DNA of 63,485 bases, the filler included, from Anaerolineae bacterium (GTDB lineage: Bacteria; Chloroflexota; Anaerolineae; Epilineales; Epilineaceae), in NCBI GenBank assembly GCA_029262755.1. It is 8 parts of 8 records of this genome, joined end to end, with 100 filler letters (N's around TTAATTAATTAA, not from the genome) between each part and the next. Parts side by side here need not be neighbours in the genome. Positions count along the whole stretch, not along the records: positions 49,267 to 60,309 come from JAJCYU010000030.1; 7 more parts are not named here. One strand, written 5' to 3'. Within the stretch, counting starts at the first letter, position 1; each line of letters opens with the position of its first letter. A model generated the notes under the pieces. The model saw nothing but the letters and a program-made list of their open reading frames with translations. It was not told the origin of the DNA and searched no databases. The position numbers and the translations under genes were made by a program. This document shows, piece after piece, positions 22,553 through 60,409 of the stretch.

Positions 22553-22652
22553 NNNNNNNNNNNNNNNNNNNNNNNNNNNNNNNNNNNNNNNNNNNNTTAA
22601 TTAATTAANNNNNNNNNNNNNNNNNNNNNNNNNNNNNNNNNNNNNNNNNNNN
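22553..22652. other. artificial contig linker
   Basis: N-run, TTAATTAATTAA, N-run. Confidence 0.98.
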
Positions 22653-39186: not shown

Positions 39187-39286
39187 NNNNNNNNNNNNNN
39201 NNNNNNNNNNNNNNNNNNNNNNNNNNNNNNTTAATTAATTAANNNNNNNNNNNNNNNNNNNNNNNNNNNNNNNNNNNNNNNNNNNN
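39187..39286. other. artificial contig linker
   Basis: N-run, TTAATTAATTAA, N-run. Confidence 0.98.
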
Positions 39287-43067: not shown

Positions 43068-43167
43068 NNNNNNNNNNNNNNNNNNNNNNNNNNNNNNNNN
43101 NNNNNNNNNNNTTAATTAATTAANNNNNNNNNNNNNNNNNNNNNNNNNNNNNNNNNNNNNNNNNNNN
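43068..43167. other. artificial contig linker
   Basis: N-run, TTAATTAATTAA, N-run. Confidence 0.98.
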
Positions 43168-44211
43168 GAAACTATGCGATTTGTTAAAGGCCTATACAAT
43201 GAAAATAAAAAAGGGTTTGTTCAGACTAAACTCCACAAGAAACCTTCGATGCATGCCGCTCACTGTGCAATAGGAATTGTAGCTTTATTGTACAAACCTC
43301 ACAACATAGATAACCGAGTAGATTGGAGTAAGCCTATTGGGAGAAGTCAACTCCAAAAACATCTAGGTGAGAGAATAGTGAATTCAATAATCAATTTTAT
43401 TATACATGATTGTTACCGTTACGGTGGCTATTGTGAAAGCAAGGAAAGTTTACCAACAATAAATGCAACGGCCTCTGCGTTGTGGTGCTTATGGCACTTA
43501 GAAGCTTTAGATAAAGTAGATGTAACGATATTAAAGCAATTCGTAAATAAAAACGCTGTTCATGAAGATGGTAAGCTCGGCTTTAAAAATGAAGAAAAAG
43601 ATCAAAACGCATGGGTATGTTCCACGTATTATGCATTACGTATTTCTAGAACGCTAGAATCAATTGGTATTGAAAAAGCAATTCCTTTTAAAGGGGAAGA
43701 AATACTATCCTTTCTCTTTGACTGTAAGGAAAACGGAAGCGGATTTAGAGACGCTAGCAATTTAGATTATGAACCAACGATAGTTCACACAAAAGATGCT
43801 CTTGCATTGACTGATGACAAAAAATATTGTTTGCGATTTAATGAATTTGTCAAAAATAAGAATATAGACTTTGAGCAAATGATAAAAGATATCAAGTTAT
43901 TCTTGAAAAAATGTGTCTTTAAAGGTGTATATGGTTTTGCAGAATCAGAATTATATTTCCCTAATGTATATGGAACATTATTGGCAATAGATATAAAGCG
44001 ATTTTTGAAGAGGCTAGAAAACAAAGAAACTGAAGACGTTATTAATAAAGAGCAGCGTAAAGATATCCTTGTATTCCTTAACTCATGTAAGGATGGAGAG
44101 AAAAAAGGAGGATATCGCGGTTACAGTTTAAATCCTAATTATATTTCCGATAAATGGTGGGAAACTGAAAGGGCCAACAGGGAACAATTTATGGAAGTAG
44201 AGCAAGAATGA
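43168..44211 (+). CDS. prenyltransferase/squalene-oxidase-repeat (alpha-alpha toroid) protein, probably 5' truncated
   Basis: Recurrent G(G)F/Y..x6-8..T..AL units: GGYCES..PTINATASAL, LGFKN..VCSTYYAL, SGFRD..PTIVHTKDAL, YGFAE..PNVYGTLLAI. Confidence 0.65.
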   Translation, partial: ETMRFVKGLYNENKKGFVQTKLHKKPSMHAAHCAIGIVALLYKPHNIDNRVDWSKPIGRSQLQKHLGERIVNSIINFIIHDCYRYGGYCESKESLPTINATASALWCLWHLEALDKVDVTILKQFVNKNAVHEDGKLGFKNEEKDQNAWVCSTYYALRISRTLESIGIEKAIPFKGEEILSFLFDCKENGSGFRDASNLDYEPTIVHTKDALALTDDKKYCLRFNEFVKNKNIDFEQMIKDIKLFLKKCVFKGVYGFAESELYFPNVYGTLLAIDIKRFLKRLENKETEDVINKEQRKDILVFLNSCKDGEKKGGYRGYSLNPNYISDKWWETERANREQFMEVEQE

Positions 44212-44319
44212 TTATTAGTGTCAATCCATAAGTTCAGGTCTAAGTTTATCACAAATCACTTTAATAAAAACTATTTACTAATCTACTGCACAAATCTTTA
44301 TTAATGGATTTTCTATACC

Positions 44320-44610
44320 TTACACTTGTTGCTTTCTCCTCGCATCTAGAACTTTGCTGAAATCAATCTCTACGTATTCAGAATTCCACTCATTATAAAA
44401 AGAGGTATTATCGCTGCTTGATTTAGGTCCAGGTGGATCAATTTTTATTCTCGTAGGCATCATTACCGAATCACTAAGTAAGATACATTCTCCTCTTCTA
44501 AGAGTCGAAAACATACTTACTATTCCTCTAATTGAGTCAGGCAGCAAATTTTTAACATATGCTTGGTCATCAGGGTTAGTAATTATTAAGTATAAAAAAG
44601 TATTACATTT
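44320..44610 (-). pseudogene. C-terminal remnant of a HerA/DUF87-like ATPase
   Basis: CNTFLYLIITNPDDQAYVKNLLPD...TLRRGECIL..D..MP. No P-loop; begins at the stop of the upstream gene. Confidence 0.7.
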
Positions 44611-45301
44611 TCCTAAGCACATCCAATAAAACCCAGTCACCAGGAGCACGCTCATATTGCCATGCACTCCATCCATTGGCAGAACGTTTCACAACAGCTT
44701 TCGCTGCGAGTGAAGGAGAGTTATAAAGTTCTTTATTATAGAAAATAGTCCCGTCCTTTCTGACAGTCGCTTTATACATTTTCCCTTTATATTTAAAACG
44801 TATCCTGAAGCTTTTGCTTACATAAGCTGCCAAGATTGGTTTTCGACCTTTAACCTTCTTGATTTCTTTCTTCTCCGTTTTTTTCTCTTTTGTCATCCCA
44901 AGTAGCAATGCCAACTCTTTTTGCTGAGCTTTGGATATCTTTTTCTTAAAAAGTGGCTTGAGGTCTTGAGATTTAATAAACTTGCCTGATTGTCTATTAC
45001 CCTTGGGAGAAGCTATCTTAAGAATGAGGGTTTCAAGCTCTCTTAAATGTGAGTCTTTGATAGTTAAATATACACTGAATGAATCCCAGGTTTTTGCATG
45101 TCTGTCTCTTAAATGTGTGGTAAGTCTATTACGGAGGTTTGATGCCAGACCTACATAACAAAGGTTATTTTTTCTATATAAGGCATAAACTCCATGACGG
45201 CCTTTAACGTATTCTTTTATTATATTTTGATAATTCTCTAACGCCTTGCGGGATATATTTTCAAGATGCTGGCAGACTAATTGTCCTTTGCGAGATTTCA
45301 C
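44603..45301 (-). CDS. GIY-YIG nuclease fused to a RAMA/DUF4357-like domain
   Basis: GVYALY...YVGLASNLRNRL; C-terminal YKATV..DG.I.Y...YNSPSLAA..V..SANGWSAW. GTG start after AAGGAG. Confidence 0.8.
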   Translation of the reverse strand: MKSRKGQLVCQHLENISRKALENYQNIIKEYVKGRHGVYALYRKNNLCYVGLASNLRNRLTTHLRDRHAKTWDSFSVYLTIKDSHLRELETLILKIASPKGNRQSGKFIKSQDLKPLFKKKISKAQQKELALLLGMTKEKKTEKKEIKKVKGRKPILAAYVSKSFRIRFKYKGKMYKATVRKDGTIFYNKELYNSPSLAAKAVVKRSANGWSAWQYERAPGDWVLLDVLRKM

Positions 45302-45410
45302 TGTTCAAGCTCCTTTGTTTTTTTAAACCTAATGGGTTGAGTCGACTGTTATTTTGTAAGATGTGGTTATCATTTTTTACAATCAGAATAAGCTTCTGCT
45401 AATGTAAGCA

Positions 45411-48400
45411 TCAAAACCTTTCCTGAATATACTCATGCTGTTTTTTCCCTTCCAGCATATCTGTAGCTGGTCCACTTCGAACATAAAACTCGGTATCTTC
45501 TAGAAAGCATGGCGCATTTGCCATACCACAATTAACTCGTAACACCTTTTTCCCATCCACTTCTATCAATTTATAATCTATCAATGGATAGAAACCCTCA
45601 CCTACTTTTGACTTAATATGATTCTTGAAATTAAGCAAATACTTATCGTCGTTCTTGTAGAACTTGCTTATTTCGTCATCAACTCCTATGACGTCACCAT
45701 CATCATTGACACCAATTAACAAGTCACCACCTTCTGAGTTAAGAAAAGCTCCTATAGTTTTCAGCGATGATTTTTCAATATATTTTTCTTTGGTACCCTT
45801 TTTGATATCAACCGAAAAAGTTTCCTTAAACTCCAGGGTTTTAGACTCACCTTTAGGTATTAATAATTTGATTTGATCTTCTTCACTCAAATTTTCTTTT
45901 GCTAATACTTTATATAGTTTCTGTCCTAGGTTATCTTGTGCTAAGTCTCTAAACTCTGGATCGCTCATCAAGCGCCCAAATATATCTTCATTCCCCTCCA
46001 TTCGATCAATAACCAAACCCTCAAACAGCTTTTTAAATATTTCAAGAAAATCCCGCATTGAATTGACTTTCGCAGCCTGACGCAAATTATCATCATCTTT
46101 GGCTTCTGCTTCAATCTGGTCAAAGAACAATTGATCCGCCTCAGTGAAGTCAGTACCAAAGCGTTCATTTAAAATATTAATCAACTCAGAAAGACGTATT
46201 TCATCTTCACCTGTCTGACCTGTACCAACATCACTCGGGCCTTTAAGTGGTTGCGCTTCGCCTCCGTATAAATTAATGCTTCCCTCACTAATTTTTTGTA
46301 ATCGGTAATATTCAAGTTCGACTTCATTTTCCAAATGATACGCAGGGCCAGAAGGACGTCTCGGCAACTTAGTCAATAAAAAGCGTAGATAGGTGTACAA
46401 TTTCTCTAAATCTGAATCCTGATATGGAATTACTTGAGACAAGAAAGCATACATGTTTCGGAAATTAACAAACAATCCTTTTATTTCCTCCTGATCGGTT
46501 TCATCGAGTTCTTTATATCGTTCGACTGTCAAATCGAGAATGCCATTCATTCTGGCATGGTCATGTACGGATTCTTTACGCTTCGGAGCAAAATAGACGG
46601 CGCAGAAATCCCTTATTTCACTATCACGAAGTACTTGTCTTTCCTCTATCTGTCCTTGTAAGCGGTACATATGATGAGGATCGGTGAGTTCTTCTGCCTC
46701 TGTCTCTTCGTAATAAGGTTTGAATGCCACAAAAATCTCTTCCCGCGAATTCCTAAAATCCAAAACAAAAGTATCTTCCTTACCTATTGCCATACGGTTT
46801 AATCGCGAAAGTGTTTGAACAGCCTGGATACCCGACAGTATTTTGTCCACATACATGGTGTGCAAAAAGGGTTGATCGTAACCGGTTTGATATTTTTCTG
46901 CCACCAACAATACTCGATATTCTTCTGTATCAAATTTTTCCGGCAGCTCACGCTCACTAATGCCACCATTCATTCCAACTTCTGTATATTTCTTGCCCGG
47001 CACCTTTGGGTCTTCTACAGTACCTGAAAAAGCAACTAGTGTTTTTATATCTGTATATCCTTTATCTTTGAGATAGTCATCAAAAGCTAGTTTATAACGT
47101 ACAGCGTGTAGACGTGACTCAGTCACCACCATCGCTTTTGCACGGCCACCTATTTTATGCCGTACAGAAGCTCGAAAATGCTCAACCATGATCTGTGTTT
47201 TTTGACCGATATTAACCGGATGTAAAGTTAGAAATTGCATCAATTCTCTTGCGGCTTTCTTCCGCTCTACGTTTTTATCATCCGTTACAATATCTGCTAT
47301 ACCGAAATACGTCTCATAAGTCGTATAATTTTTTAATACATCTAGAATAAACCGCTCTTCAATCGCTTGGCGCATGGTATATTTATGAAATGGTGCTTCG
47401 CCGCTAGGGCCGGGTTCATCAAAAACTTTCTTCGTTTTGTACTTTGGTGTTGCCGTGAAGGCAAAAAAGCTGATGTTTGGCTGGCGCCCTCGTTTCATCA
47501 TACTTCTAATGATTGCATCATCTTCGTCTTCGTCATTTTCTGTTATACATAGTGCCGCCTCTTCTTCAATTCCCTCTTTATTCAGCACATACTTCAGCTC
47601 CATCGCCGTTTCGCCGGATTGCGAGCTATGTGCCTCATCGACAATGACCGCAAAACGCTTACCTTTCGTGGATATGGCAACACTACCCTCGCCTTGTTCC
47701 TTGTTTACCTTTTCAATAGTCTCGGTAACAAAAGGAAATTTTTGCACAGTAGAGATAATGATTGGTGTGCCAGTCTTCAAGGCAGTCACCAACTGGCGCG
47801 TATCCTCATCGATTTTCTGTACTACGCCTTGTTTGTGCTCAAATTGATAAATCGTGTCCTGCAATTGCTGATCAAGCACTCGCCTGTCGGTAATCACCAC
47901 CACGGTATCAAATATTTTATTATCATCCGCATCATGCAAGCTTGATAAACGATGGGCCAACCAGGCGATAGAATTGGATTTACCTGATCCGGCAGAATGC
48001 TCAACTAGATAGTTTCGCCCAGAACCATTCTCCTTACTATGGCTAACTATTTTTCTAACGGAATCTAGCTGATGATAACGGGGAAAGATCATCGTTTCTT
48101 TACGGATTTTTTTAATTCCCTTATCCGTCACCACCTTTTTATCTTCCACTTGCAAATGCATAAAGCGGCCTAATATATCAAGCAAGCTATCGCTTTGTAG
48201 TACCTCACGCCATAGATAGGCCGTTCGATAGCCGCCATCTGCTGCGGGTGGATTACCCGCACCACCATTGCAACCCAAATTAAAAGGCAAAAAGAATGTC
48301 TTGGAGCCGCTTAAGCGAGTTGTCATAAATACCAAATCTTGATCCACAGCAAAATGCACCAAGGCGCGTTTCTTAAACTGAAACAGCTTTTCTTTAGGGT

Positions 48401-48920
48401 CGCGGTCGGTTTTGTACTGGTGTTTGGCATCCTCGACCGTCTGCCTCGATAAAGGATTTTTTAACTCCATCGTAATTACAGGCAGGCCATTGAGGAATAA
48501 CACCATGTCCAGTGACTTTTCATTATCGCTAGAAAAATATAGTTGGCGAGTTACGCTTAAGGTATTGTCTTTATACTGGGCCAAAGTATTCGGGTTTAAC
48601 TTAGTGCTCGGCAAAAAGAAGGCTATCCTCAGCTTCTTGCCGTAGCATTTAAAGCCATGACGCAATACATTAAGCATACCCTGAATTTCCAGGGTTTTGC
48701 ATAAATCATCCAGCACAACCTTTTCAGTGTCACTACCGTGTATACCTTTTAGCGCCTGCCATAGCTTATCTTGAGTTTTCTGAATAAAGGAGAGTACACG
48801 AACCGGTTCCAATGCGCGTTCGGTGTCAAAATCGTCAGACTCGCCTTTTTCATAACAGTCTTTCTCTACAAACTGATAATCAATAGCATCTTCCAGACGA
48901 TCTTCGGTATGTTTTTTCAT
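45411..48920 (-). CDS. hsdR: type I restriction endonuclease R subunit with C-terminal Schlafen/AlbA_2 domain
   Basis: DMVLFLNGLP..MELKN, HSAGSGKS, DEAH, FTATP, QTLSRLNR; then GESKTLEFKE...KTIGAFLNSEGGDLLIGVNDD. Confidence 0.93.
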   Translation of the reverse strand: MKKHTEDRLEDAIDYQFVEKDCYEKGESDDFDTERALEPVRVLSFIQKTQDKLWQALKGIHGSDTEKVVLDDLCKTLEIQGMLNVLRHGFKCYGKKLRIAFFLPSTKLNPNTLAQYKDNTLSVTRQLYFSSDNEKSLDMVLFLNGLPVITMELKNPLSRQTVEDAKHQYKTDRDPKEKLFQFKKRALVHFAVDQDLVFMTTRLSGSKTFFLPFNLGCNGGAGNPPAADGGYRTAYLWREVLQSDSLLDILGRFMHLQVEDKKVVTDKGIKKIRKETMIFPRYHQLDSVRKIVSHSKENGSGRNYLVEHSAGSGKSNSIAWLAHRLSSLHDADDNKIFDTVVVITDRRVLDQQLQDTIYQFEHKQGVVQKIDEDTRQLVTALKTGTPIIISTVQKFPFVTETIEKVNKEQGEGSVAISTKGKRFAVIVDEAHSSQSGETAMELKYVLNKEGIEEEAALCITENDEDEDDAIIRSMMKRGRQPNISFFAFTATPKYKTKKVFDEPGPSGEAPFHKYTMRQAIEERFILDVLKNYTTYETYFGIADIVTDDKNVERKKAARELMQFLTLHPVNIGQKTQIMVEHFRASVRHKIGGRAKAMVVTESRLHAVRYKLAFDDYLKDKGYTDIKTLVAFSGTVEDPKVPGKKYTEVGMNGGISERELPEKFDTEEYRVLLVAEKYQTGYDQPFLHTMYVDKILSGIQAVQTLSRLNRMAIGKEDTFVLDFRNSREEIFVAFKPYYEETEAEELTDPHHMYRLQGQIEERQVLRDSEIRDFCAVYFAPKRKESVHDHARMNGILDLTVERYKELDETDQEEIKGLFVNFRNMYAFLSQVIPYQDSDLEKLYTYLRFLLTKLPRRPSGPAYHLENEVELEYYRLQKISEGSINLYGGEAQPLKGPSDVGTGQTGEDEIRLSELINILNERFGTDFTEADQLFFDQIEAEAKDDDNLRQAAKVNSMRDFLEIFKKLFEGLVIDRMEGNEDIFGRLMSDPEFRDLAQDNLGQKLYKVLAKENLSEEDQIKLLIPKGESKTLEFKETFSVDIKKGTKEKYIEKSSLKTIGAFLNSEGGDLLIGVNDDGDVIGVDDEISKFYKNDDKYLLNFKNHIKSKVGEGFYPLIDYKLIEVDGKKVLRVNCGMANAPCFLEDTEFYVRSGPATDMLEGKKQHEYIQERF

Positions 48921-48929
48921 ATTTTAACC

Positions 48930-49166
48930 CTAACCTATAGACTCTATGGCAGCATTTTCTAACTCGTTCAAACTTAACCCATCTATATCTTTATAGTGAT
49001 AATGACGAATTGATGGCTCCTTAACTAAATACTTGTTATCAGCATCTAAGTAACTAGAAGGGTCTTCGCAATAACTTAAAGCATATTTTGTAAGGTTCAG
49101 TCGCTTGCGCTTGCCAGTATAGATATTTATTGTCGCACTAAGCGCCCTGCACCAATCCTCGCTAGA
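48930..49166 (-). CDS. hypothetical protein, C-terminal part (5' truncated)
   Basis: Open frame SSEDWCRALS...NAAIESIG* ending 9 nt before the hsdR start. Confidence 0.6.
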   Translation of the reverse strand, partial: SSEDWCRALSATINIYTGKRKRLNLTKYALSYCEDPSSYLDADNKYLVKEPSIRHYHYKDIDGLSLNELENAAIESIG

Positions 49167-49266
49167 NNNNNNNNNNNNNNNNNNNNNNNNNNNNNNNNNN
49201 NNNNNNNNNNTTAATTAATTAANNNNNNNNNNNNNNNNNNNNNNNNNNNNNNNNNNNNNNNNNNNN
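49167..49266. other. artificial contig linker
   Basis: N-run, TTAATTAATTAA, N-run. Confidence 0.98.
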
Positions 49267-52200
49267 CTTCGTCCTCGCGCAGCCGCGTCCGCCACACTCG
49301 ATTGTTGGACATCGCCGCCACGTTCGGCATCTCGCCGCATAGCCAGCGCCTCGCCTCGCGCGTGGGCCACCATCGCTCGTCCTCGTAGCCGTCCGCGGCC
49401 ATGAAGCAGGCCCATTCCGCGTTCGTCACGGGAAACCTCCCGATCTCGAAGCGCTCCAGCGCCACCCTGTGACGCGGGATGTGTGCCGACGAGACGCCGG
49501 AGCCGCCCGTTGGATGCCCCCAGGCGATCGGATCGTCATCCCCAATCTCGTAGGTCCCGGCTCCCACCGACACCAGCGGCGGCATGTGGTACGTGCCGTG
49601 CGGACCGAGCCTGCGCTCGAAGCGAGGATCGCCCAATGCACCCACCGCGTGGCCGCAGGCGATCCGCGCCCGCAGGTCGGCGCGCGCGTCCTCGGCGCAG
49701 GCGGCCAGCGTGCCGCGCAGCTCGTCGAGCAGCTCGTCCGCAAGTCGCGGCCGCACGTCCGGCTGTGCCGCCACGCGGCCCGCCAACGGAAGGTTCGCCT
49801 CCATGATCCCCCGCACGAAGGCGTCGGGATCCGGCGCCATGGCCGCCGCGAGCAGGGTGGTCTCCTCCCAACCCGTGCCGCTTCGCGGCGGCAGCGGGTC
49901 GGCCGCGCCTAGCGTGTCGATCAACGCCTCGACGCTCGGGTGGATCTCCGCGGCACGCCACGCGGCGCGTACCCGCTCCGGATCCGGCGATCGCGCCAGC
50001 TGCCGCGCCGCGAAGTACTCCTGCACGAGCTGGTGGACATACATCAGCTCGCCGGCCGCCTCGTCCTCGTCCAGCACCGCAAGGGCCGCGCCCGCAGCGA
50101 GGATGGCCTCGTCGGTCTTGCTGTCGAGCATGTCCAGCGCGTCGTCGACGTCGACGCGCACCTGGCTGGCCTCGCCGTCGGCCCGACTGGATTGCATCGC
50201 ATGCGCCAGTGCCGCCAGCTGAGGCACGAGCACCCCGCGTTCGGGCAGGTCGTACGCGCCCTTCCACCGCCACTTGGCCACTTGCTTGAGGTCGCGACCC
50301 GCCAGCAGCAGCCCAGGCTCGAAGAGCGCGTTGCCGCGCTCGATCTCTCGCCGCAGCGCCTGCCTCACGAAGCCCGTGAAGAGACCGACCCGCCCGGTGG
50401 GCATCTCGCCCGTCGCCTCCACCTGCTCGACGAGCAGGACCAGGAAGTAGGGGGAGCGCAGGACCTCCAGCTGGGGGCTGCCCTTCAGGGCGGACCAGAT
50501 CCGGCGATGGTGTCCGGGACTGTAGAGCGCAAGGAAGTCCGCCACCTGGGCATCGGTCAGCGGCTCAATGCGCACTTGCGGCACGCGCAGATCCGGCGTC
50601 GAGAGCGATTGACTGTAGTCCAGCGAACGGCAGGAGAACACGACGCGATTCCCGGCATGCTCGCCGGCAAGGCCGATCAGCCAATCCTTCCAGAGGCGCA
50701 CGCGGCCATGGAAGTCGGCCTCGGAGGCGGCGGGCATCTCGTTGAGCGCATCGAGCAACAGGGTCACGCGGCCCTCGGCGAGGAGCGCTTCGAGCGAAGG
50801 AAGGTCGGGGCAGCGGGCGGACCAGCGCTCGGCGAGCCAGTCGGCCGGCGCCGGGAGCGCCTCGCCGGGGCGTGCCGGCTTGTAGGTATTGAGCGACACG
50901 AGGAGGGTGATCCGGTCGTCTCCCTCGCCGCGCAGCGCGCCGATCGCCGTGTCGAGCTCGAGGCGGCGCAGCAGCGTCGACTTGCCTCCGCCGGGCGGGC
51001 CGAGTACGACGACGGCCGGATGCTCCGTCCTCGACAGCAGCTCCGCCAGATCCGTGTGCCGTTCCTCCGTGGCCGCCCACCGGTCGGTGGCGGTCTCCTC
51101 TCCCTGATCGATCAACAGCGTCAAGCCCACAAAGCGCCCGTCGAGGCGGTAGCGCGCCTGGCTCCACTCGGCGATGCGGCCCAAGCGATAGGTCCGCCAA
51201 TCCGCCGGCTTGTGGCGGGCCAAGGCCGTCGCTTCTGCCGAGGTCAACGTCGCCGTGAGCCCCCCATCCCCCGTGACCGCCGCTTCCAGTCGCGCCCGGG
51301 CGCTGTCGGTGTCGGACGGCCCCTCCCCGGCCTGGCGATCCACCACGCGCACGAAGTCCCGCGGGTGCAGCGCCTCCGCGGTCCGTGGCGGCGTGTCGAC
51401 CTCGGGCATACCGGGAGTCAGGATCTGAACGATGTGCTCCGAGTGCCGCAGGTCTTTGAGGCGGTGCTCACCCCAGTCGCGCAGGCGGGCGTCCTCCGCA
51501 AGATGCTCGCGCACGAGCGTCGCCGTGACCCCGGAGAGCAGCACTTGCCCCCCGTAGCCGGCCGCCTCCAACCGCGCCACCCGGTTGACCGGCTGCCCGA
51601 AGTAGTCGCCGCCTCGCTCGGTGGCCTCCCCGGTGTGCAGACCCATCCGCACGCGCAGGGGTCCGAATCCCTCGCCGAAGACCGACCAGTCCTCCGCCGT
51701 CACGCTGCGCTGCGCCTCGATAGCCGCGGCCAGGCCGGCACCCGCGGTCGCGAAGGCGGCGCAGAATGCGTCGCCGATGGTCTTGAAAACGTGCCCGCCG
51801 GCCGCCGTGACCGCCCGGCGCAGCAACGCGTCGTGGCGCTCCAGCGCGGCGCGCATGGCATCGGGCTGCTCGTCCCAACGCTGGGTCGAGCCCTCGATGT
51901 CGGTGAAGAGAAAGGTGACGGTTCCGCTAGGCGGTCCGATCGCCTCCGCTGCGTGGGCGGCGCGGGCACGGGCTTCGTCGCCGGGCGCTGCCGCTGCGGC
52001 GTCCTCGCCGTCGCTCTGCGATGGGCCCTGCACCGTGACCGACTCAGCCGCCGCCACCAGCGCCCGCCCCACGCTCTCCGCGAGCTGTGCCAACGCCGCC
52101 TCGAAGGGCTGCCCGTGAAAGTCCGTGTACTGGATCCGCCCAAGCTGGAAGTGCACCTTCGTGGGCTCCAGCAGCACCGGCAGGACGGGCGTCCCGCGAT

Positions 52201-52438
52201 CGAGCGCGTACTGCCACTCGTCCTCCACGTTGGACGAGGCCATCGCCGCGGGGGAGAGCACGAGGACGAGCACGTCGGCGGCGTCCAGCGCCGTCTGGAT
52301 CGCCGTGCTCCACTTCGCGCCGCCGTGGATGCCGGCGCGGTCGATCCACGGCTCGATGCCCAGCGGCGGCAGGGCGGCCGCTAGGCGGTCGGCGAAGGCC
52401 TGGTCGGGGCGGGCGTAGCTGAGGAAGGCTTGGGTCAT
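49267..52438 (-). CDS. TIR - class III nucleotide cyclase - NACHT NTPase - FGE/SUMF1 multidomain protein (3' truncated)
   Basis: AFLSYAR...WID...VEDEW (TIR); FLFTDIEGST, KTIGDAF, RMGLHTG, VNRVAR (cyclase); GPPGGGKST, LLLDALNE, HQLVQEYFAA (NACHT); IGRFPVTNAEW (FGE). Confidence 0.9.
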
Positions 52439-52878
52439 GGATAGGCAGGATGCCATGACGATGTCGGCCATGCTATCGAGGGGCCGGGCACCGGGAAGCG
52501 GTTCCGGCCGGCTATGCGGCCGGATGAAACGGCCGCGCACACGATGAGCGCATCCCTTAGGGACACGCTGTGCGGAACCTTCGCCGTCGCGGAACACGTC
52601 ACGGACGGCGGCGCCGTCAACCTGGGCACCGGCCCTTACAACTGCAACTGCGACAACGCGCTCGCCAAGGAGCTGCTGATCACGGAGTCGCACGTGCACC
52701 TAGAGGAGGGGCGTGCGTCGCGCCATCGACTGGTACTATGCATTCCGCGACGGCGCGGACATCCGTCCGGAGCTGCAGCACCTGCTGTTGGAGCGCTAGG
52801 GGGCGCCGGAACCCACGACGAAGCAGCGCCGTCGCTACAGTGGAAACGCGCCCAACCCACCCCATTAGGAGACCCCAC

Positions 52879-53250
52879 ATGCCAGGCGGACATGCGTACA
52901 CGGGCCCCGCGGAGGCCCTGGCCAACTACAGTGCGGCCATCGAGGCCTCCGGGAGCGACGCGGAGCTCAAGGGGGCCAAGAACCCCTACACCTCGCGCAA
53001 CGGCAACATGTTCAGCTTCCTCTCGCCGGATGGCTCGTTGGCCCTGCGCATGTCCAAGGAACTGGGCGAGCAGTTCCAGTCCGAATATGAGAGCGGGCCG
53101 GTAATGGCCTACGGCAGCGTCATGCGCGGCTACGTCTCCGTGCCGGCCGACTTGCTCGCCGATCCGGCGGCGCTCGCCCCCTGGTTCCATAGGGCATGGG
53201 AATGGATCGGCACGCAGCCGGCGAAGGCGACGAAGAGAAAGAACAAGTAG
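52879..53250 (+). CDS. TfoX/Sxy N-terminal-like small protein
   Basis: NGNMFSF..LALR...MRGYVSVP.DLL.D...L..W. AGGAG RBS. Confidence 0.75.
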   Translation: MPGGHAYTGPAEALANYSAAIEASGSDAELKGAKNPYTSRNGNMFSFLSPDGSLALRMSKELGEQFQSEYESGPVMAYGSVMRGYVSVPADLLADPAALAPWFHRAWEWIGTQPAKATKRKNK

Positions 53251-53289
53251 TAGAGATCGCGAAGGAGAAGGCCCTAGTGTTTGAAGAAG

Positions 53290-53322
53290 ACACGGCCGCG
53301 ACCACTCTGGTCGCGGCCGTGT
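53290..53322. terminator. GC hairpin between convergent genes
   Basis: ACACGGCCGCGACCA-ctc-TGGTCGCGGCCGTGT. Confidence 0.6.
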
Positions 53323-53371
53323 GGCTTGTTTGCGCTCCGCCGACGCCCTATTCGAAGCCCGCGACGAACGC

Positions 53372-53992
53372 TCAGGTGATCACGGAGGTCGGCGCCTCCG
53401 GCAAAACCTCGGCGGCGAGGGGCTCGTCACCCGGCCCCGGGGCTCGGCCATCGGGTCCGCCCGTCGACGAGATGGCGTCCACGATCTGCTCCGGCTCGAC
53501 ATGATCCCCGGAGTACGCGCTGACGTGCAGGAAGCGCGTCTCGCCGTCGGCGTCGATCACGAGCACGCCGCCGTTCTGGTGCGCATCGCCCCGCGTCGCG
53601 GACTGACGGTATCCCTGGAGCATGGCACGCGCGGACTGGACGAAGGTCGACGCCGCGATCCGCCGCGTCATGCCCAGGGCCGCGTAGGCCCGGCGTTCCG
53701 GATCGACGTACAGCGCGAAGGGCACATCCACTTGCTCTTGGAAGGCCTGCGCGTGGGCCGCCGTCCCGTTCCCGATGACGATGACCTGTGCCCCCCTGCG
53801 CTCAAGCTCGGGCGCGATGTCGCGCAACTGCGCGACTTGCTGTCGGCAAAACATTCAGCCGAAGTGGCGCACGAAAACGATCACGCTCAGGCGGTCGGCG
53901 ATCAGGTCGCCGAGGGCGACGTGCCGACCGTCCGGGGACTGGACCTCGATGGGGGCCAGGCGGTCCATGATACGAGGGCTTGGGTGGGGCAT
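53372..53992 (-). CDS. peroxiredoxin-like (AhpC/TSA-2, PRXL2/SelU-type) selenoprotein with UxxC
   Basis: Frame reads VIVFVRHFG-TGA-MFCRQQ through 53855-53857; later LYVDPERRAY.ALG and QNGG. GGAG RBS before ATG 53992. Confidence 0.85.
53819..53836 (-). promoter_or_regulatory. candidate bacterial SECIS hairpin
   Basis: GUCGCGC-AGUU-GCGCGAC starting 18 nt 3' of the UGA, with a G in the loop. Confidence 0.55.
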
Positions 53993-54113
53993 GGTGGACT
54001 CCCGAGTCGGCGCCGGATACGCACCATGGGAGCGCGGAGAGGGGCGCGTTCTTACGTGGGCGGCTTCGAGGAGGGGAGGCTGGAGAACCAGACCGGCGTG
54101 GTCGAGCCCGGCC

Positions 54114-55985
54114 TCAGAACCGCAGGCCGATCGCGTTCCAATGCCAGCACACCAGCGTGGCCGTCAGCGCCGCGAGCGAGAACACGGACAGGTGCAGCTT
54201 GCGCCAGGCAGACAACTCGGCATGGGCGAAGGCGTGCGCGCAGAGGCCGGGGAGGCACAGGGCGAGGATCGCGCCGAAGGTGGCCAGCACGAGCGCAGCG
54301 CGCACGGTTGCGGGCACGCCTGACTCCAGGCTTCCTGTCGCCGTCGTGATCGCCATGCCGAGCAGAAAGGCCAGGAAGGAGAGGGCGCAGAGCGCGGCCC
54401 AGGCACGAACGCCCGGCCGCCCGGGCGGTCGTCCTCGCCGGATCGACCGCAGCCCTTGCGCCGCCCAATACACCACCGACAGCGCCATCACGCCTAGGGC
54501 CAGGAGGAACGCACTGCGTTGGGTGCGCGGCGGCACGGGGTCCGTGCTGCGGAAGTACGTGCGCGACGCCGTGCGCAGGCTCACGCCGCCCATGAGCGGG
54601 TCCGCGGCGAAGGCCAGTCGCGGTGCCGCCTCGCGGAGCCGGCGAAAGTGCGCCGGTCGCACTTCCACGTAGGGATCTCCGTCCACGAGCAGGAGGCCCT
54701 CCGGACCCAACCGCACCTCCTCGGCGCCTTCCATCAGGGTGAAGAAGCGATCGAAGGTAAACGAAGGCACCCCGCCGTAGAGGTAGTCGCCGACGTAGGC
54801 ACCGTGGTCCGAAAGGGGCTCGAAAGGCCCGGTTCCCTCCGCCTCAGCCTCGGGCGCGGTGGCCAGCCGCGCGATCAGCGTCTGCGCGAAGGCCGCGTGC
54901 GCGCCGGCGCCCTCCGCGTCATTGGAGGCCAGGAAGAAGGCGAGCCCCTCGTCGGGCAAGATCTCGAAGCGGGCGGACCAGCCGCGCATGTCGCCGCTGT
55001 GGCGAAGGGAGCGGGGCGTGCCCCCGTCCCGCTCGTGGATCCACAGACCGTAGCCGTAGGCGGTGGGCAGTCCGGGTGCGTTGCGGTGTTGGGGCTGCAT
55101 CATCCGGCGTAGGACGCGGGCGCTCAGCACCTGCCGGCCTTCGATCCGACCTTCGCGCAACAGCGCGGTCAGGAAGCGCGTCATGTCCGCGCCTGTGGTG
55201 GTCATCCGGCCCGCCGGCGCGGTGTGCGACGGCTCCGGCCCGATGGCGCGCCCCTCCACGTAGCCGGTGGCCAGGTCCGAGGCTTGACCGAGCAGATCGA
55301 AGCTCGATCGCGTCATCCCCAGCGGCTCGAAGATGGTCCGCGCCACGTGAGCCCCAAAGTCCTCGCCGCTGCTCTGCTCCACCAGGTGACCAGCGAGCGT
55401 GTAGCCGTAGTTGTCGTAGACGAAGGCCCCGCCCGGCGTGCGGACGACGGGGGGCAAGGCATGGGCCAAATGTCGGCCCAACGGTTCCACCGCCGCGGGC
55501 GAGGCGGCGCGGCTCCCATAGCTGCGTCGATCCAGGCCGGCCGTGTGCGTCAGCAGATGATGCAACGTGAGATCGCCCGCCACGCGCCGGTCCAGAAAGC
55601 CGTCCGGAAGGTCGGCGCCGATGTCCCGCTCCAGCGACAGGCCACCGCGCTCCACCTCCTGCAGCGCGGCCAACGCGGTGAAGGTTTTGGACACGGAAGC
55701 CACCCGGAAGATGGTGCTGCGCGGATCGACGGCCGCTTCCTCCTCCACGTCCGCGTAGCCGTAGCCTTCCTCGAGCAGCACGCCGTCACGGTCCAACGCC
55801 ACGAGAATCGTTCCCGGCACGTCACGCTCGGCCAGGTCCGCCTCCAGCGCGTCGGCCGCGGCCTGGAGCGCGAGACGGTGCGACGGCGCGCGCTGATCCT
55901 CGTGCTGTGCGGCGGCGGGGGCGGCCCGCGCGGGAATGGCAAGAAGACTGGAGATTGCGGCAAGCAGGATCGCCGAGCGGCGCAT
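54114..55985 (-). CDS. serine hydrolase (beta-lactamase/AmpC family) with C-terminal TM helices
   Basis: Signal peptide, FRVASVSK, LLTHTAG, YDNYGY, HSGD. Confidence 0.9.
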   Translation of the reverse strand: MRRSAILLAAISSLLAIPARAAPAAAQHEDQRAPSHRLALQAAADALEADLAERDVPGTILVALDRDGVLLEEGYGYADVEEEAAVDPRSTIFRVASVSKTFTALAALQEVERGGLSLERDIGADLPDGFLDRRVAGDLTLHHLLTHTAGLDRRSYGSRAASPAAVEPLGRHLAHALPPVVRTPGGAFVYDNYGYTLAGHLVEQSSGEDFGAHVARTIFEPLGMTRSSFDLLGQASDLATGYVEGRAIGPEPSHTAPAGRMTTTGADMTRFLTALLREGRIEGRQVLSARVLRRMMQPQHRNAPGLPTAYGYGLWIHERDGGTPRSLRHSGDMRGWSARFEILPDEGLAFFLASNDAEGAGAHAAFAQTLIARLATAPEAEAEGTGPFEPLSDHGAYVGDYLYGGVPSFTFDRFFTLMEGAEEVRLGPEGLLLVDGDPYVEVRPAHFRRLREAAPRLAFAADPLMGGVSLRTASRTYFRSTDPVPPRTQRSAFLLALGVMALSVVYWAAQGLRSIRRGRPPGRPGVRAWAALCALSFLAFLLGMAITTATGSLESGVPATVRAALVLATFGAILALCLPGLCAHAFAHAELSAWRKLHLSVFSLAALTATLVCWHWNAIGLRF

Positions 55986-56290
55986 AGCGGCTCCCTCATG
56001 GTCTGGCGGGGTCTGACGGCCCGTGCACGCCACCGGCGCCCGGATGCGTGTCGGGTGCATCCGGCGCGCTACCGGCGCGGTGGGCGCTTGTGGGTCGGAC
56101 GGCAGAGCGGGAGCGGATGTTTCGGCATGGGAACGGTTCGGCTCCGATCGGGGCCGGCAACGCAGGTCCTCGGTGGGTGCCCTTCGGTCGCGGAAAAGCG
56201 CGGCCCCTCCGTTCCGCATCCAAAGTCTCACATCGGCGTCGTTGGCGATGCACCCGCACGGACCCTTGCCCGCCGAGCTAGAATCTCCCC

Positions 56291-57382
56291 ATGGCTTCCC
56301 CACCCGCGGACCCTGCGCCGCCACGCTATCGTCGCATCCACCTCCGCGGCGGCCCGCGGTCGATGGGCAGGGCCCAGGCCCGCCTCCTGGCGCCCTACCT
56401 TCCGCCATTTCGCCGTTGGGCGTGGGAGCGCGAGCCCGGCTTTCTGGACGCCTGCGCCCGACTCGTGCGCGATGTTCACGAGCCCTTGTGGGAGGAGCTC
56501 TGCGCCTTTGCGGCCTCGCACGGGATGCCCGAGACCGAGGGTCTCTTCGTCCGGGCCAGCGCCCTGCCCCACGGTTGCAGCTCCTTCGCCTGGCGGCTGC
56601 CGGACGACCGCGTGGTGGTGGGCCGCAACTACGACTTCCATGCCAAGAGCCCCACGCGCGACCTGCTCCGCACGCAGCCGGCCGCCGGCCACGCCCACGT
56701 GGGCATGTGCGGCGGCCTGGTCGGCGGCCGTTACGACGGCGTGAACAGCGCCGGCCTCTTCGTTGCGCTGCACAAGGTGATGGCGGACCGCCCGCCGCGC
56801 TATGCACCCGGCGTGCCCTACCACCTCATCCCTCGCCTCGCCCTGGAGCTGACCGACACCGCCGCGGACGCTGCCCGCCTCATCGGCGGCCTCCCCCACC
56901 TTGCGCCCTTCAACTACCTGGTCGCCGACCCCGGCGGCACCTTCGTCGGCCTGGAGTGCTACCCCGGCGAAGCGGTCCGCGCCCGCCGCAGCCACCGCGC
57001 CCTCGCGATGACGAACCACTATCGGCATGGAGCGCTCGCGTCGAAGCAGGGACGTCGCTCGCTGACGCATTCGCGGCGGAGGTTGGCGCGGCTGTCGACG
57101 GCGCCGGGCGGCGAGGATGGCTCGCAGGATGGCGGGGAGGGTACGTCTGCGAGCGCTTCGCAAGCGCCCGTTGGTCGCACGATCGTCCCGGCCCGCGACT
57201 CCGACGCGCTCGCCCCGGTCCGCGACGCGCTCCGCGATCACGACGCGCCGGTCTGCAACCACGGCGAGATGGGCGCCACGCTCTGGAGCGCCGCCGCGGA
57301 CCTCACCCAGCGACGGCTGGCCTACGCCTTCGGCCCGCCCTGCGAGGTTGAGTACCAAGTCGTGCCCTTTCCCGAGCGGTAG
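56291..57382 (+). CDS. peptidase C45 (Ntn autoproteolytic acyltransferase/hydrolase)
   Basis: GCSSF, GRNYDF, DGVNSAGL, NYLVAD, TNHY. Confidence 0.88.
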   Translation: MASPPADPAPPRYRRIHLRGGPRSMGRAQARLLAPYLPPFRRWAWEREPGFLDACARLVRDVHEPLWEELCAFAASHGMPETEGLFVRASALPHGCSSFAWRLPDDRVVVGRNYDFHAKSPTRDLLRTQPAAGHAHVGMCGGLVGGRYDGVNSAGLFVALHKVMADRPPRYAPGVPYHLIPRLALELTDTAADAARLIGGLPHLAPFNYLVADPGGTFVGLECYPGEAVRARRSHRALAMTNHYRHGALASKQGRRSLTHSRRRLARLSTAPGGEDGSQDGGEGTSASASQAPVGRTIVPARDSDALAPVRDALRDHDAPVCNHGEMGATLWSAAADLTQRRLAYAFGPPCEVEYQVVPFPER

Positions 57383-57612
57383 CGTCCGCAGCGGCTGACC
57401 GCGCTCCGCAACCGCTCCTCGAGCGATCGCCCCGCTACCACGGCCGCCCCCGCAACAGGTTCAACGGGCAGGCGAGCAAGGCCGGGAAAGCCCCGCGCCG
57501 CTCCGTGATGTCGAGCGCGAGGCTGACGAACGCGAGAACGATGTATATGCCCGAGCTCCGCCGCCTCTTCCCACGCGTACGTGCATTTCTGCCACCATCG
57601 ACGTCCCACGCG

Positions 57613-57645
57613 GTTGCCGGCGATGCAACATCGCGCCTATACCAT
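57613..57645 (+). promoter_or_regulatory. inverted-repeat operator GTTGC-N7-GCAAC plus -10-like TACCAT upstream of the WYL gene
   Basis: The same motif and geometry recur at 58793-58825. Confidence 0.65.
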
Positions 57646-57694
57646 GCTCCGGCGCGCCCTCCTTTCACGCCCCAACCCGGCCAGGAGCTTCGAG

Positions 57695-58678
57695 ATGTCC
57701 CGTTCCACATCGAAAGCCGAACGCCTAAATCACATCGAGCAGCTGCTCCTCTCCAACACGCGCGGTATCCGCAAGGCGGACATCGCCCGGCGGCTGGGCG
57801 TGCATCGCTCGACGGCCGGACGGGACATCGAGGAGCTATGCCGGCGTCTGCCCATCTGGGAGAGCGACGAGGGCCGCCTGGGTATCAACCGCGACGATTA
57901 CTTGACCGAGGTGCGCTTCACCATTCACGAGAGCATGGCCGTGCATTTGGCCACCCGCCTCATGGCCACCCGGTTGGACAAGCACAACCCGCATGCCGCG
58001 GCCGCTTTGCGCAAGTTGGGCCGGGCGCTCAAACCCTGCGCACCCCTGGTGGCTCGGCATCTGATGCAATCGGCCGATGCCCTGGACGCCGGCGGGCTGC
58101 GTGTGAATCGCAACTACCTCCGTACGCTCGAAACGATCACCACGGGGTGGTCGCAGGGGATTCCCGTGCGCCTCGAGTACGTGGCCGGCGACGGGCGCGA
58201 ACGTCGCTTCACCTTCGAGCCGCGCTTCATCGAGCCCTATGCCGTCGGCCGCACCACCTACGCCATCGGCTGGGTGCGCGAGCGGGACGCGCTGCGCACC
58301 CTGAAGCTCGAGCGCATCCGCGCCTGCGACCTCCTGGAGGAGGAGCGCTACGAGGTGCCGAAAGACTTCGATGCTCGCACCTTTCTCATGGACGCATGGG
58401 GTATCTGGTTCACCGTGGACGACGCGGTGACCGAGGTGATCCTCCGCTTCTCCCCCGCCGTGGCGAAGCGCGTGCACGAGACCCAATGGCACCCCTCGGA
58501 GGTGGTCGAACACCTCCCAGACGGCTCGCTCGAGTGGCGCGCTCGGGTCAGCGAGTGGCAGGAGATGCTGCCGTGGGTGCGCGGCTGGGGCGGCGAGGTA
58601 GAGGTGGTGGCGCCGGAGGCGATGCGCGAGGATCTTGCGGAGGAGGCCAGGGCGCTGGCGCGGATGTACGGGGGGTGA
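57695..58678 (+). CDS. WYL-domain transcriptional regulator (HTH-WYL-WCX)
   Basis: KAERL..IE, IARRLGVHRSTAGRDI, EPRFIEP..YAIG...LRTLKLERI, AWGIW, WHPSE, EMLPWVRGWG..VEVVAP. AGGAG RBS. Confidence 0.93.
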   Translation: MSRSTSKAERLNHIEQLLLSNTRGIRKADIARRLGVHRSTAGRDIEELCRRLPIWESDEGRLGINRDDYLTEVRFTIHESMAVHLATRLMATRLDKHNPHAAAALRKLGRALKPCAPLVARHLMQSADALDAGGLRVNRNYLRTLETITTGWSQGIPVRLEYVAGDGRERRFTFEPRFIEPYAVGRTTYAIGWVRERDALRTLKLERIRACDLLEEERYEVPKDFDARTFLMDAWGIWFTVDDAVTEVILRFSPAVAKRVHETQWHPSEVVEHLPDGSLEWRARVSEWQEMLPWVRGWGGEVEVVAPEAMREDLAEEARALARMYGG

Positions 58679-58791
58679 GGGGCAACGCTCTCTTCACTAC
58701 GATCACACACAACTAGGTTCCCGTAAACAGCACCAGGCAGACGTCAGCGTTAGCTTGGAGATCGAGTTTGGACCTCGCCCAATGCGCAGCT

Positions 58792-58825
58792 TGTTGCCGT
58801 AGTTGCAACAGTCGCCGCCGATCAT
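58792..58825 (+). promoter_or_regulatory. second copy of the operator, TGTTGC-N7-GCAACA, plus GATCAT
   Basis: GTTGCCGtaGtTGCAACA versus GTTGCCGgcGaTGCAACA at 57613. Confidence 0.65.
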
Positions 58826-58879
58826 TCCGGTGCCTGTCGCAATCAACGCCAACCCACCTCCAATGCAAAGGGTGAGAAC

Positions 58880-59668
58880 GTGGACATAAACAAAGGGATC
58901 GACAAACTCCGGAGTTTCCTGAGCAAAGTCCGGCAAGTTTGGGCCAACGGCTGCATCGGGAAGACCGTCGTACTGAGTGGAATCTGGATGCTCTGCGGAA
59001 TCTGTTCGATCGCGATGTGGATTGCGACACCTCAGTCGGTCAAAGACGAGCAGAATGCAACGGCTACTGCTCGCGTCGAGAATCGAGAAGCCACAGAGGA
59101 GGTACGCGGGACGCAGAGTGCCGCCGAAGAGACAGCAGAGGTGGCGACTGAGGAATTCGAAGCAGCGCAAAGCCAAGCCGATTCGACTGCGACAGCGGAT
59201 GCGGTTGCCGCGATGACCGCACTCGCCCCTACCGAGGACCCGGATCGCGCGTCGATCGAGGAATACTGGAAGTTCGTCGGTTCCAACCTCGGCAGCATCG
59301 GCGAAGTCTCCACTGCTGCCGGGGAGCAACTGGGTCTTGCAGGAGAGGATCCCACCGTCATTCTCGACGAGGACTGGAAGCTCAGGATGGCGGTCGGCCT
59401 CGGTTTCATGGGCGGCTCGGCGGAGGCCATCATCAACCGCGATGATGTGCCTGAGTCGGCCACGGTTCTTCAGGCGGCGCTAGAGGAGATGGCTCGGCAC
59501 CTCTCGGCGTCGGTGACGAGCTTTGCCAACGGTATCGACAATCTTGATCCGAGTGAGTTCGAGGCGGGCGGACGCGAGATGTCCGCGGCCAACTCTGTCC
59601 TGCGCGAGAAAGTGATGCCTGAGGTAGCGCGTTTCAAAGCCCTGCATGGCCTTGAGGATGTTGACTAA
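58880..59668 (+). CDS. hypothetical single-TM protein with Ala/Thr/Glu linker and helical C-terminal domain
   Basis: 262-aa ORF with TM VVLSGIWMLCGICSIAMWIA; visibly lower GC than its neighbours. Confidence 0.75.
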   Translation: MDINKGIDKLRSFLSKVRQVWANGCIGKTVVLSGIWMLCGICSIAMWIATPQSVKDEQNATATARVENREATEEVRGTQSAAEETAEVATEEFEAAQSQADSTATADAVAAMTALAPTEDPDRASIEEYWKFVGSNLGSIGEVSTAAGEQLGLAGEDPTVILDEDWKLRMAVGLGFMGGSAEAIINRDDVPESATVLQAALEEMARHLSASVTSFANGIDNLDPSEFEAGGREMSAANSVLREKVMPEVARFKALHGLEDVD

Positions 59669-59846
59669 ACACGAGTGGTTTCTGAGCCGACAACGACGAT
59701 CAATGGCCATATCGCGAGGACGGGTGAAGGACTCACTGGCGAGCGGACTGGTGGGTTTCTGGATCATTCCATGGAATCAGGTATTGCGTGGTTGGCGGAT
59801 TGCGCTCGCCCTGTGTGCCAACATAGCGTGAGCCAACGTACCGTGA

Positions 59847-60309: not shown

Positions 60310-60409
60310 NNNNNNNNNNNNNNNNNNNNNNNNNNNNNNNNNNNNNNNNNNNNTTAATTAATTAANNNNNNNNNNNNNNNNNNNNNNNNNNNNNNNNNNN
60401 NNNNNNNNN
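60310..60409. other. artificial contig linker
   Basis: N-run, TTAATTAATTAA, N-run. Confidence 0.98.

Follow-up and report, generated by a model that had tools for sequence, protein, structure and literature searches.

A TIR-cyclase-NACHT-FGE gene from a Chloroflexota draft genome: a candidate NLR-like receptor with two enzymatic heads

Introduction

Receptors of the STAND and nucleotide-binding leucine-rich repeat (NLR) types oligomerize upon ligand binding; TIR NADases need self-association, and in class III cyclases the active sites lie at the interface of a dimer. In the mycobacterial-type adenylate cyclase-STAND-TPR-HTH (helix-turn-helix) proteins, exemplified by Rv0386 and regarded as regulators, an N-terminal class III cyclase precedes a STAND ATPase. 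Such proteins have TPR sensors and DNA-binding tails, and they carry neither a TIR nor a lectin-fold sensor. Here, we describe a gene for a protein with TIR, class III nucleotide cyclase, NACHT and FGE-sulfatase (C-type-lectin-fold) domains, located on contig C30 of a 63,485-nucleotide stretch of DNA (the window) from the draft genome of an Anaerolineae bacterium (GCA_029262755.1; G000 below). An earlier note, made from the sequence alone, had proposed that this protein is a single receptor with two oligomerization-dependent outputs.

A survey of bacterial NACHT proteins, in the sections on which we draw, lists cyclic nucleotide monophosphate (cNMP) cyclases and TIR domains among the N-terminal effectors, places FGS among the "antigen receptor-type" sensors, with diversification "in several cases" by diversity-generating retroelements (DGRs), and remarks that multicellular bacteria have expanded sets of paralogues (Kibby et al., bioRxiv 10.1101/2022.07.19.500537). 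Another work, as far as the portion used here extends, proposes an uncharacterized immune lineage of cNMP cyclases, "Immune clade 1", fused to NACHT or AP-ATPase (bioRxiv 10.64898/2026.08.12.744502). Of two further papers, in the corresponding portions, one presents STAND-FGS systems whose heads include TIR and which are often associated with DGRs (Kaur et al. 2021, PMC8195603), and the other presents NACHT/nSTAND-CLec proteins diversified by DGRs, some of which carry a TIR (Dore et al. 2024, PMC10907252). The portions of these four works drawn on here, which do not extend to supplementary tables, make no mention of a TIR and a cyclase on one chain, and those of PMC10907252 and PMC8195603 make none of a cyclase head on a DGR target.

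We consider it probable, at about 0.6, that the gene on C30 encodes a single-chain NLR-like (bacterial NACHT/STAND) receptor of a filamentous-type Chloroflexota bacterium, acting as a ligand-triggered switch with two nucleotide-directed outputs.

Results

Domain organization and active sites

A domain architecture search located all four domains anticipated in the earlier note, on the minus strand (Table 1). Pfam was run on the translation from the ATG at 52471 (1068 amino acids), and residues are numbered here from the methionine encoded at 52438. All four matches score above their cut-offs: TIR_2 (2.6e-27, 96 bits, cut-off 28), Guanylate_cyc (2.9e-15, 56.8 bits, cut-off 21.9), NACHT (5.1e-07, 30.1 bits, cut-off 26.7) and FGE-sulfatase (7.9e-07, 29.4 bits, cut-off 23.3). 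The P-loop that had been noticed in the NACHT domain is intact as GPPGGGKST. The C-terminal FGE-type lectin-fold domain is likewise present, with a match at residues 955–1033 that covers profile positions 5–76 of 255 only. Complete paralogues extend ∼250 amino acids further, and the C30 copy is without the rest of the FGE domain, including its hypervariable C-terminal loop. PADLOC returned generic TIR models only, together with a weak match to PycC (5.1e-08).

The TIR domain contains the glutamate that the earlier note had expected within a VEDEW motif. When a profile of the eight TIRs of G000 was compared with the PDB, it matched TRR-2 (1.8e-06), the bacterial TIR 7uxr (2.6e-05), AbTIR and SARM1. 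The N-V-E-D-E segment lies on W-T-E-Y-E of 7uxr_A, with E74 at the position of the last glutamate, which we take to be the catalytic residue. E74 is invariant in the TIR-bearing homologues (9/9) and in the TIRs of G000 (8/8). The nine homologues also share the complete NVEDEW motif. An AlphaFold2 model of residues 1–345 has a mean predicted local distance difference test (pLDDT) score of 90.9, and its TIR part adopts a β-α fold with pLDDT ∼90. A Foldseek search with this two-domain model listed only cyclases as matches and gave no view of the TIR.

The best solved relatives of the cyclase, identified with phmmer against the PDB, are all adenylyl cyclases, led by trypanosome GRESAG4 (4e-19) and Mycobacterium avium Ma1120 (1.6e-18). 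The cyclase half of the model matches Ma1120 (5d0e_B) in Foldseek with an E-value of 1.7e-14 and a target TM-score of 0.91. Aligned with adenylyl cyclases, six residues (D180, D223, K219, D278, N285 and R289) occupy the positions that handle metal, substrate and transition state, roles that we assign on the assumption that those in the class III cyclase literature apply. The pair of metal-binding aspartates, the adenine-specifying lysine and the Asn/Arg pair pointed out in the earlier note are thus all canonical and of adenylate type. Among 113 family proteins (those with the first cyclase motif among 120 listed), a motif search found all six residues canonical in 95, and most of the remaining 18 failed the search pattern rather than bearing a substitution; the Walker A motif is present in 109. 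The cyclase site appears to be under purifying selection, judging from this motif search. One TIR-bearing paralogue, on contig C223, has a degenerate cyclase site (TEIDGAS, RSIGD, GAYVG). Both enzyme sites are intact in 7–8 of the nine TIR-bearing members.

Paralogues and the rarity of the TIR-cyclase tandem

The family is expanded in G000, where tblastn with the C30 protein gave 22 matches on 19 contigs. Pfam analysis of 19 open reading frames (ORFs) identified three further complete TIR-cyclase-NACHT-FGE genes (C277, C218 and C223; ∼1300 amino acids), three cyclase-NACHT-FGE genes (C218, C60 and C328), a TIR-cyclase-AAA/NB-ARC-TPR gene (C255), two TIR-NB-ARC-TPR genes (C8 and C315) and an FGE-only gene (C32); nine further ORFs are pieces cut by contig ends. 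The two family members on C218 (locus L002; 4685–8050, minus strand, and 15510–19409, plus strand) are divergent and 7.5 kb apart, one with and one without a TIR. The paralogue variability that the earlier note suggested looking for is evident at the sensor tip, which is hypervariable: mean pairwise identity among the G000 paralogues is 0.47 in the stretch that resembles a DGR variable region (VR), compared with 0.82 in the TIR, 0.51–0.63 in the other body domains, 0.61 in the post-NACHT region and 0.43 in the TIR-cyclase linker.

In a protein collection of 5.8 billion clusters, 927 of 8000 scored candidates match the C30 protein at E ≤ 1e-3. Nearly all of the best 120 have the Guanylate_cyc+NACHT+FGE-sulfatase design with ∼1120–1150 amino acids, so cyclase-NACHT-FGE is a common Chloroflexota family. 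Their named sources are metagenome-assembled genomes (MAGs) of Caldilineae, Anaerolineae and Ardenticatenia, and their annotation is "SUMF1/EgtB/PvdO family nonheme iron enzyme". The cyclase-NACHT-FGE receptor family is already catalogued, and the added TIR is a rare variant. TIR_2 occurs in only eight of these 120 full-length matches, three of them from G000, and two more (P0006 and P0007) begin inside the TIR. The nearest relatives vary along the C30 protein, being P0002/P0003 for the NACHT region and P0014/P0011 for the start of the FGE domain.

Other searches agree that the combination is uncommon, as the earlier note had held. With residues 1–340 as the query, TIR_2 and Guanylate_cyc occur together in 10 of the best 120 matches, four of them from G000. 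Among 1.84 billion cluster representatives (78,086 hits), both domains were found only in the short fragments P0165 and P0166, a result based on Pfam analysis of 11 of the best 150 hits, picked by match range. A search of GTDB with one genome per species gave 50 related loci, of which only L031 has all four domains, and the tandem occurs on two short contigs (L105 and L109) among 77 metagenome loci. Within the order, this type of cyclase is present at E ≤ 1e-40 in 28 of 35 genomes. The matches spanning both TIR and cyclase fall in five places, all in G000, and none in the other 34 genomes among the matches listed, 17 weaker matches being outside the listing.

The heads appear on more than one body. 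The protein from C255 aligns with the C30 protein continuously through TIR, linker and cyclase (61%), and has a different STAND module with a TPR sensor. A FastTree phylogeny that covers the sequence from the cyclase to the end of the protein in 56 rows requires five changes in TIR presence; the tree was built quickly, with no approximately unbiased test, and one of its "no TIR" rows is a truncated gene call. L031 and the C30 gene share just 31% identity in the TIR, which lacks the NVEDEW motif in L031, and 54–65% in the rest of the protein. These comparisons suggest that two different TIR subtypes were used in building, or rebuilding, the four-domain design. Stacked heads also occur in related STAND proteins: P0172 and P0174 have two cyclases ahead of STAND-TPR, P0173 has two TIRs, and P0219 has seven TIRs followed by WD40 repeats. 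Seven other loci (L126, L129, L130, L133, L135, L150 and L152) contain short genes for a TIR of the C30 subtype (51–56% identity), with an FGE domain ∼0.6–0.8 kb after the TIR and apparently without a STAND NTPase.

Diversity-generating retroelements

A DGR targets a homologue of the gene. Among 67 loci screened for imperfect repeats with base-biased mismatches, a single case was found, L031 (record DAOUCP010000064.1, an Anaerolineae MAG; DGR locus 9881–15559). Its target is a 1313-residue TIR-cyclase-NACHT-FGE gene, whose 3′ end and a repeat located 1.6 kb downstream share 80% identity over 122 nt. Sixteen of the 17 mismatches between the two copies are at adenines of the downstream (template) copy, and genes for a reverse transcriptase (RT; RVT_1, 9.9e-15) and a bAvd protein (2.8e-22) lie between the repeats. 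L031 thus contains a complete DGR whose target is a four-domain homologue. In the assembly, a 7-nt insertion in the variable repeat shifts the frame before the end is reached; it could be a genuine lesion, or an artefact of drawing one consensus from a variable population. A screen of 86 further loci yielded a second repeat pair, at L117 (8980–9387), after a TIR-NACHT-FGE gene without a cyclase. These repeats are 80% identical over 138 nt, with 22 of 26 mismatches falling at a single base of the downstream copy, and no RT was found nearby by similarity to the RT of L031.

The suggestion in the earlier note of a DGR template repeat was thus borne out for the homologue L031, and G000 itself yielded only RT relics. 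No RVT_1 match was found in G000 (84% complete), no repeat was found near the C315 paralogue, and the last 300 nt of 11 FGE paralogues of G000 gave no template-like repeat, the only matches being to other paralogues (64–84% identity). One relic, at C277 (L001 12162–12350), is a short ORF ∼100 nt downstream of the four-domain paralogue that weakly matches RT residues 3–20 (E 0.016). The other, at C425 (L068 3475–3768), corresponds to residues 251–348 of the L031 RT (49%, 1e-21) without an RVT_1 core. Similar RT stubs are present at L023 (9619–9741) and L021 (2758–2877). When the VR-equivalents of the 11 G000 paralogues are compared with the L031 template, 67% of non-adenine sites (520/781) and 35% of adenine sites (119/341) agree, and C occupies the third base at the template's 11 AAY codons in 64% (78/121), against a background of 45%. 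This pattern fits a fossil DGR footprint, and selection on binding residues could look similar.

TIR and cyclase in separate genes

An unfused counterpart of the tandem was found in an Anaerolineaceae MAG (L063, 9425–12169), where a 320-residue cNMP_binding+TIR_2 protein is encoded 25 nt upstream of a Guanylate_cyc+AAA_16 STAND gene that runs off the contig. PADLOC identifies PycTIR (1.1e-19) and PycC (2.3e-15) at this locus. Its TIR has 44% identity to that of the C30 gene and the same NVEDEW motif. Of the other cNMP-binding-TIR loci, L062 has no cyclase in the DNA searched, L065 offers no more than 1.4 kb of downstream sequence, and the L066 sequence breaks off at the TIR. In G000, 13 cNMP-binding matches fall in nine proteins, which include an MscS channel, NDH2, CRP-type regulators, a patatin, a bPH protein and a methyltransferase. 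None of the nine is fused to a TIR or adjacent to the C30 gene. On C155 (L075 244–2535), two cNMP-binding domains are joined to a patatin phospholipase domain; this protein is a conceivable receiver, with no link to any paralogue.

Extent of the gene and its surroundings

The window comprises eight contigs of G000, each whole, and contains 14 runs of 44 N. G000 is a draft of 428 contigs and 5.06 Mb, 84% complete with 0.7% contamination and a median contig GC of 0.675. Seven artificial spacers of the form N44-TTAATTAATTAA-N44 (13205–13304, 19743–19842, 22553–22652, 39187–39286, 43068–43167, 49167–49266 and 60310–60409) join separate draft contigs, so gene adjacency across them carries no meaning. 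C30 corresponds to positions 49267–60309 (11,043 bp, GC 0.69). As its first base, 49267 is a contig edge; thus nothing to its left is part of the gene, whose 3′ end is cut inside the FGE domain by the assembly break. The minus-strand frame is open from 52699 to the spacer, with candidate ATG codons at 52471, 52456 and 52438. The last is likely the true start, since homologues begin at the methionine encoded there, with N-termini of the form MT-x-(A/V)-F-(I/L/V)-SY.

The earlier note also proposed recovery of the 3′ end. An 855-nt contig from run X1 has 0 differences on 49267–49939 and extends 182 nt past the C30 edge, so the gene continues in the organism. X1, a biofilm metagenome in which 0.86 of the sampled words are present, is possibly the source and is thus not independent. 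No RNA data set was listed among those containing the sampled words. Its depth is low (∼5–7), and its contigs leave 49940–50232 and 52096–52116 unbridged. No k-mer overlap (21–127 nt) was found between the C30 end and any other G000 contig. C290 (L069 1–492) opens with an FGE fragment (profile positions 91–253), ∼62 residues beyond the break point of the gene; its nearest relatives neither support nor exclude it, and C290 may or may not be the missing tail. The same four-domain order in three complete G000 paralogues and in independent metagenome assemblies makes an assembly chimera unlikely, and the C30 copy is incomplete only by the assembly break inside the gene.

The C30 neighbours encode a TfoX_N protein, a beta-lactamase-family protein and a C45/AAT-type protein. 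The first of these is divergent from the gene (52570–53250; TfoX_N, 1.8e-07), in an ORF that is longer than the domain and whose true start is uncertain. The sequence on the other side of the spacer, 43168–49166 (GC 0.38), is a separate contig, C29. Together with C25 (19843–22552, GC 0.35), it belongs to the 23 G000 contigs with GC < 0.55, and both are probably mis-binned DNA. C29 encodes a 1169-residue HSDR_N/SWI2_SNF2/ResIII protein with a C-terminal Schlafen AlbA_2 domain (45411–48920, minus strand), a GIY-YIG+RAMA protein (44603–45301, minus strand) and a prenyltransferase-like protein (43174–44211).

Table 1. Features of the TIR-cyclase-NACHT-FGE gene on C30 and of the adjoining spacer, in window positions
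Feature	Positions	Strand	Basis or remark
Artificial spacer	49167..49266	.	N44-TTAATTAATTAA-N44; not biological
TIR-cyclase-NACHT-FGE gene	49267..52438	-	1057 codons present; 3′ end cut by contig end
TIR_2 domain, residues 5-119	52082..52426	-	Pfam; profile vs PDB; AlphaFold2 model
NVEDEW motif, N70-W75; E74 at 52217-52219	52214..52231	-	Alignment to 7uxr_A
Variable Ala/Asp/Glu-rich linker between TIR and cyclase, residues 120-170	51929..52081	-	Alignment indels; pLDDT 57-75
Class III nucleotidyl cyclase catalytic domain, residues 171-327	51458..51928	-	Pfam; phmmer vs PDB; Foldseek
FTDIEG, D180 first metal-binding Asp	51890..51907	-	Aligned with FTDIE of GRESAG4 and Ma1120
KTIGD, K219 purine-specifying Lys and D223 second metal-binding Asp	51770..51784	-	Alignments
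GDYFGQPVNRVAR, D278 adenine-specifying Asp, N285/R289 transition-state Asn/Arg	51572..51610	-	Alignments
NACHT NTPase core, residues 476-608	50615..51013	-	Pfam, above cut-off
Walker A GPPGGGKST, residues 480-488	50975-51001	-	Motif
Walker B-like LLLDALNE, residues 560-567	50738-50761	-	Motif
Post-NACHT helical region, residues 609-954	49577..50614	-	No Pfam match; conserved in family
FGE-sulfatase (C-type-lectin-fold) sensor domain, first part	49268..49576	-	Pfam, partial profile

Discussion

A two-output receptor and its rivals

If the C30 protein is an NLR-like receptor with two outputs, its lectin-fold domain would bind a foreign or danger ligand, and binding would free the NACHT switch and allow the protein to oligomerize. 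Oligomerization would gather the N-terminal heads, so that paired cyclase domains could make a 3′,5′-cyclic nucleotide, which the Lys/Asp specificity pair suggests is most likely cAMP, and clustered TIRs could cleave NAD+. The affected cell might then stop growing or die, and a diffusible cAMP signal may accompany this. Several observations weigh against this reading. A single-sequence search with the TIR gave no match among solved structures in the PDB, and the tryptophan of the WxxxE motif is replaced by N70, which is invariant in this TIR subtype. The degenerate site on C223 indicates that cyclase activity may be dispensable. The hypervariable sensor end of the C30 copy is unseen because it lies off the contig. 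No defence genes or defence island were found among the C30 neighbours, and cAMP is also a housekeeping messenger in G000, whose cNMP-binding proteins include channels, CRP-type regulators and a patatin. The NCBIfam matches (EruA, ThcB4, LipJ and EgtB) are all far below their cut-offs, the best being 56 bits against 800 and 45 against 1000. Finally, the portions of the cited literature used here contain no report of activity for any cyclase-NACHT protein.

The tandem could, in a bolder version, be a selected two-channel output and no mere product of domain shuffling, "a Pycsar folded into an NLR", in which a ligand-gated, DGR-diversifiable antigen receptor would kill its own cell through NAD+ cleavage by the TIR and emit a diffusible cyclic nucleotide that warns or primes filament neighbours through their cNMP-binding proteins. 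The pairing has apparently formed at least twice with unrelated TIR subtypes (the C30 lineage and L031), the tandem has moved as a unit to a second STAND/TPR backbone (C255), and an unfused form exists at L063, where a STAND-cyclase accompanies a cNMP-gated TIR. These points favour the idea, which we nevertheless hold to be doubtful. The main rival is a non-immune signalling receptor whose ligand is of self or environmental origin, for example in the recognition of filaments or kin or of a glycan in the cell envelope, with the cyclase feeding an ordinary cAMP network and the TIR serving as an assembly or adaptor domain. It would suit the housekeeping type of the neighbours and the many cAMP receivers of G000, among them the CRP-type regulators, the MscS channel and NDH2; a closely related cyclase also heads STAND-TPR proteins with LuxR/SARP DNA-binding domains, and the occurrence of this cyclase type in 28 of the 35 genomes of the order suggests a routine function. 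We think it unlikely, since the TIR glutamate is strictly conserved in a TIR subtype shared with a PycTIR-like effector, a hypervariable tip and DGR-targeted homologues fit an arms race better than a fixed self ligand, and the paralogues are heavily expanded with shuffled heads.

Only one of the heads might, alternatively, provide a real output. The TIR could make a signalling nucleotide, as Thoeris-type TIRs do, or be inactive; or the cyclase could be the sole output, with the TIR as a back-up against inhibitors. The patchy distribution of the TIR on the body tree (five changes in 56 rows) and its near identity among paralogues (0.82) whose bodies differ suggest a recently spread add-on module, and the replaced WxxxE tryptophan and the paralogue on C223, which retains its TIR and has lost cyclase residues, point the same way. 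This is distinctly unlikely in our estimate, given that both sites are intact in most TIR-bearing members (7–8 of 9) and that L031 bears a different TIR subtype on the same body, so that the pairing seems to have arisen or been renewed more than once, which speaks for joint use. It is highly improbable that the C30 copy lacks its own function, either as a pseudogene (decaying or truncated) or as a chimera assembled from paralogues. The gene does stop at a contig edge, its segments differ in their nearest relatives, and X1 covers it at low depth with two unbridged intervals, yet 1057 codons are open with all motifs intact, an X1 contig runs past the edge with 0 differences, and complete paralogues and other assemblies have an identical architecture.

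Significance

NLR-like receptors with lectin-fold, retroelement-diversified sensors have been proposed to provide adaptive-like antigen recognition in multicellular bacteria, and to our knowledge none of their cyclase-headed or FGE-sensing members has been tested. With two nucleotide-directed enzymes on one chain, the C30 protein could show whether NACHT oligomerization activates dimer-dependent enzymes generally, and whether cell-killing and signalling outputs combine. A single gene at L031 brings together NLR-type switching, cyclic-nucleotide chemistry and targeting by a DGR. Should the C30 protein prove ordinary, it would still document free swapping of effector heads among the paralogues of one genome.

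Comparison with known systems

The C30 protein resembles the Rv0386 type in the order of cyclase and STAND module, and close relatives of its cyclase head such proteins in Chloroflexota. Like Pycsar and Pucsar, it pairs a class III-type cyclase with a TIR, and the NVEDEW subtype is common to the C30 protein and the PycTIR-like protein of L063. Unlike in Pycsar, the TIR and the cyclase are fused, with no cNMP_binding domain and no separate effector gene beside them. The specificity residues of the cyclase also look adenylate-type, not pyrimidine-type, and its similarity to PycC in PADLOC is weak.

DGR-diversified STAND-CLec/FGS sensors, as presented in the portions of the literature used here, have a NACHT or nSTAND1 module followed by a lectin fold with an RT-rewritten tip, a description that L031 and L117 fit. 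The C30 gene differs from these DGR targets in that its variable end is off the contig and G000 has relics only, without an intact RT or template repeat. The protein is also like Immune clade 1 in that a class III cyclase is fused directly to NACHT, a likeness at the level of domain description; it differs from that clade, as described in the part of the work used here, by the TIR on the same chain.

With bacterial NACHT proteins, the C30 gene and its complete paralogues share the tripartite order of an N-terminal effector, a central NACHT with Walker A and B motifs and a C-terminal FGE/FGS sensor. The C30 protein departs from those covered in the sections of the survey on which we draw, where the tested proteins belong to other clades with other sensors, in carrying two enzymatic heads in tandem.

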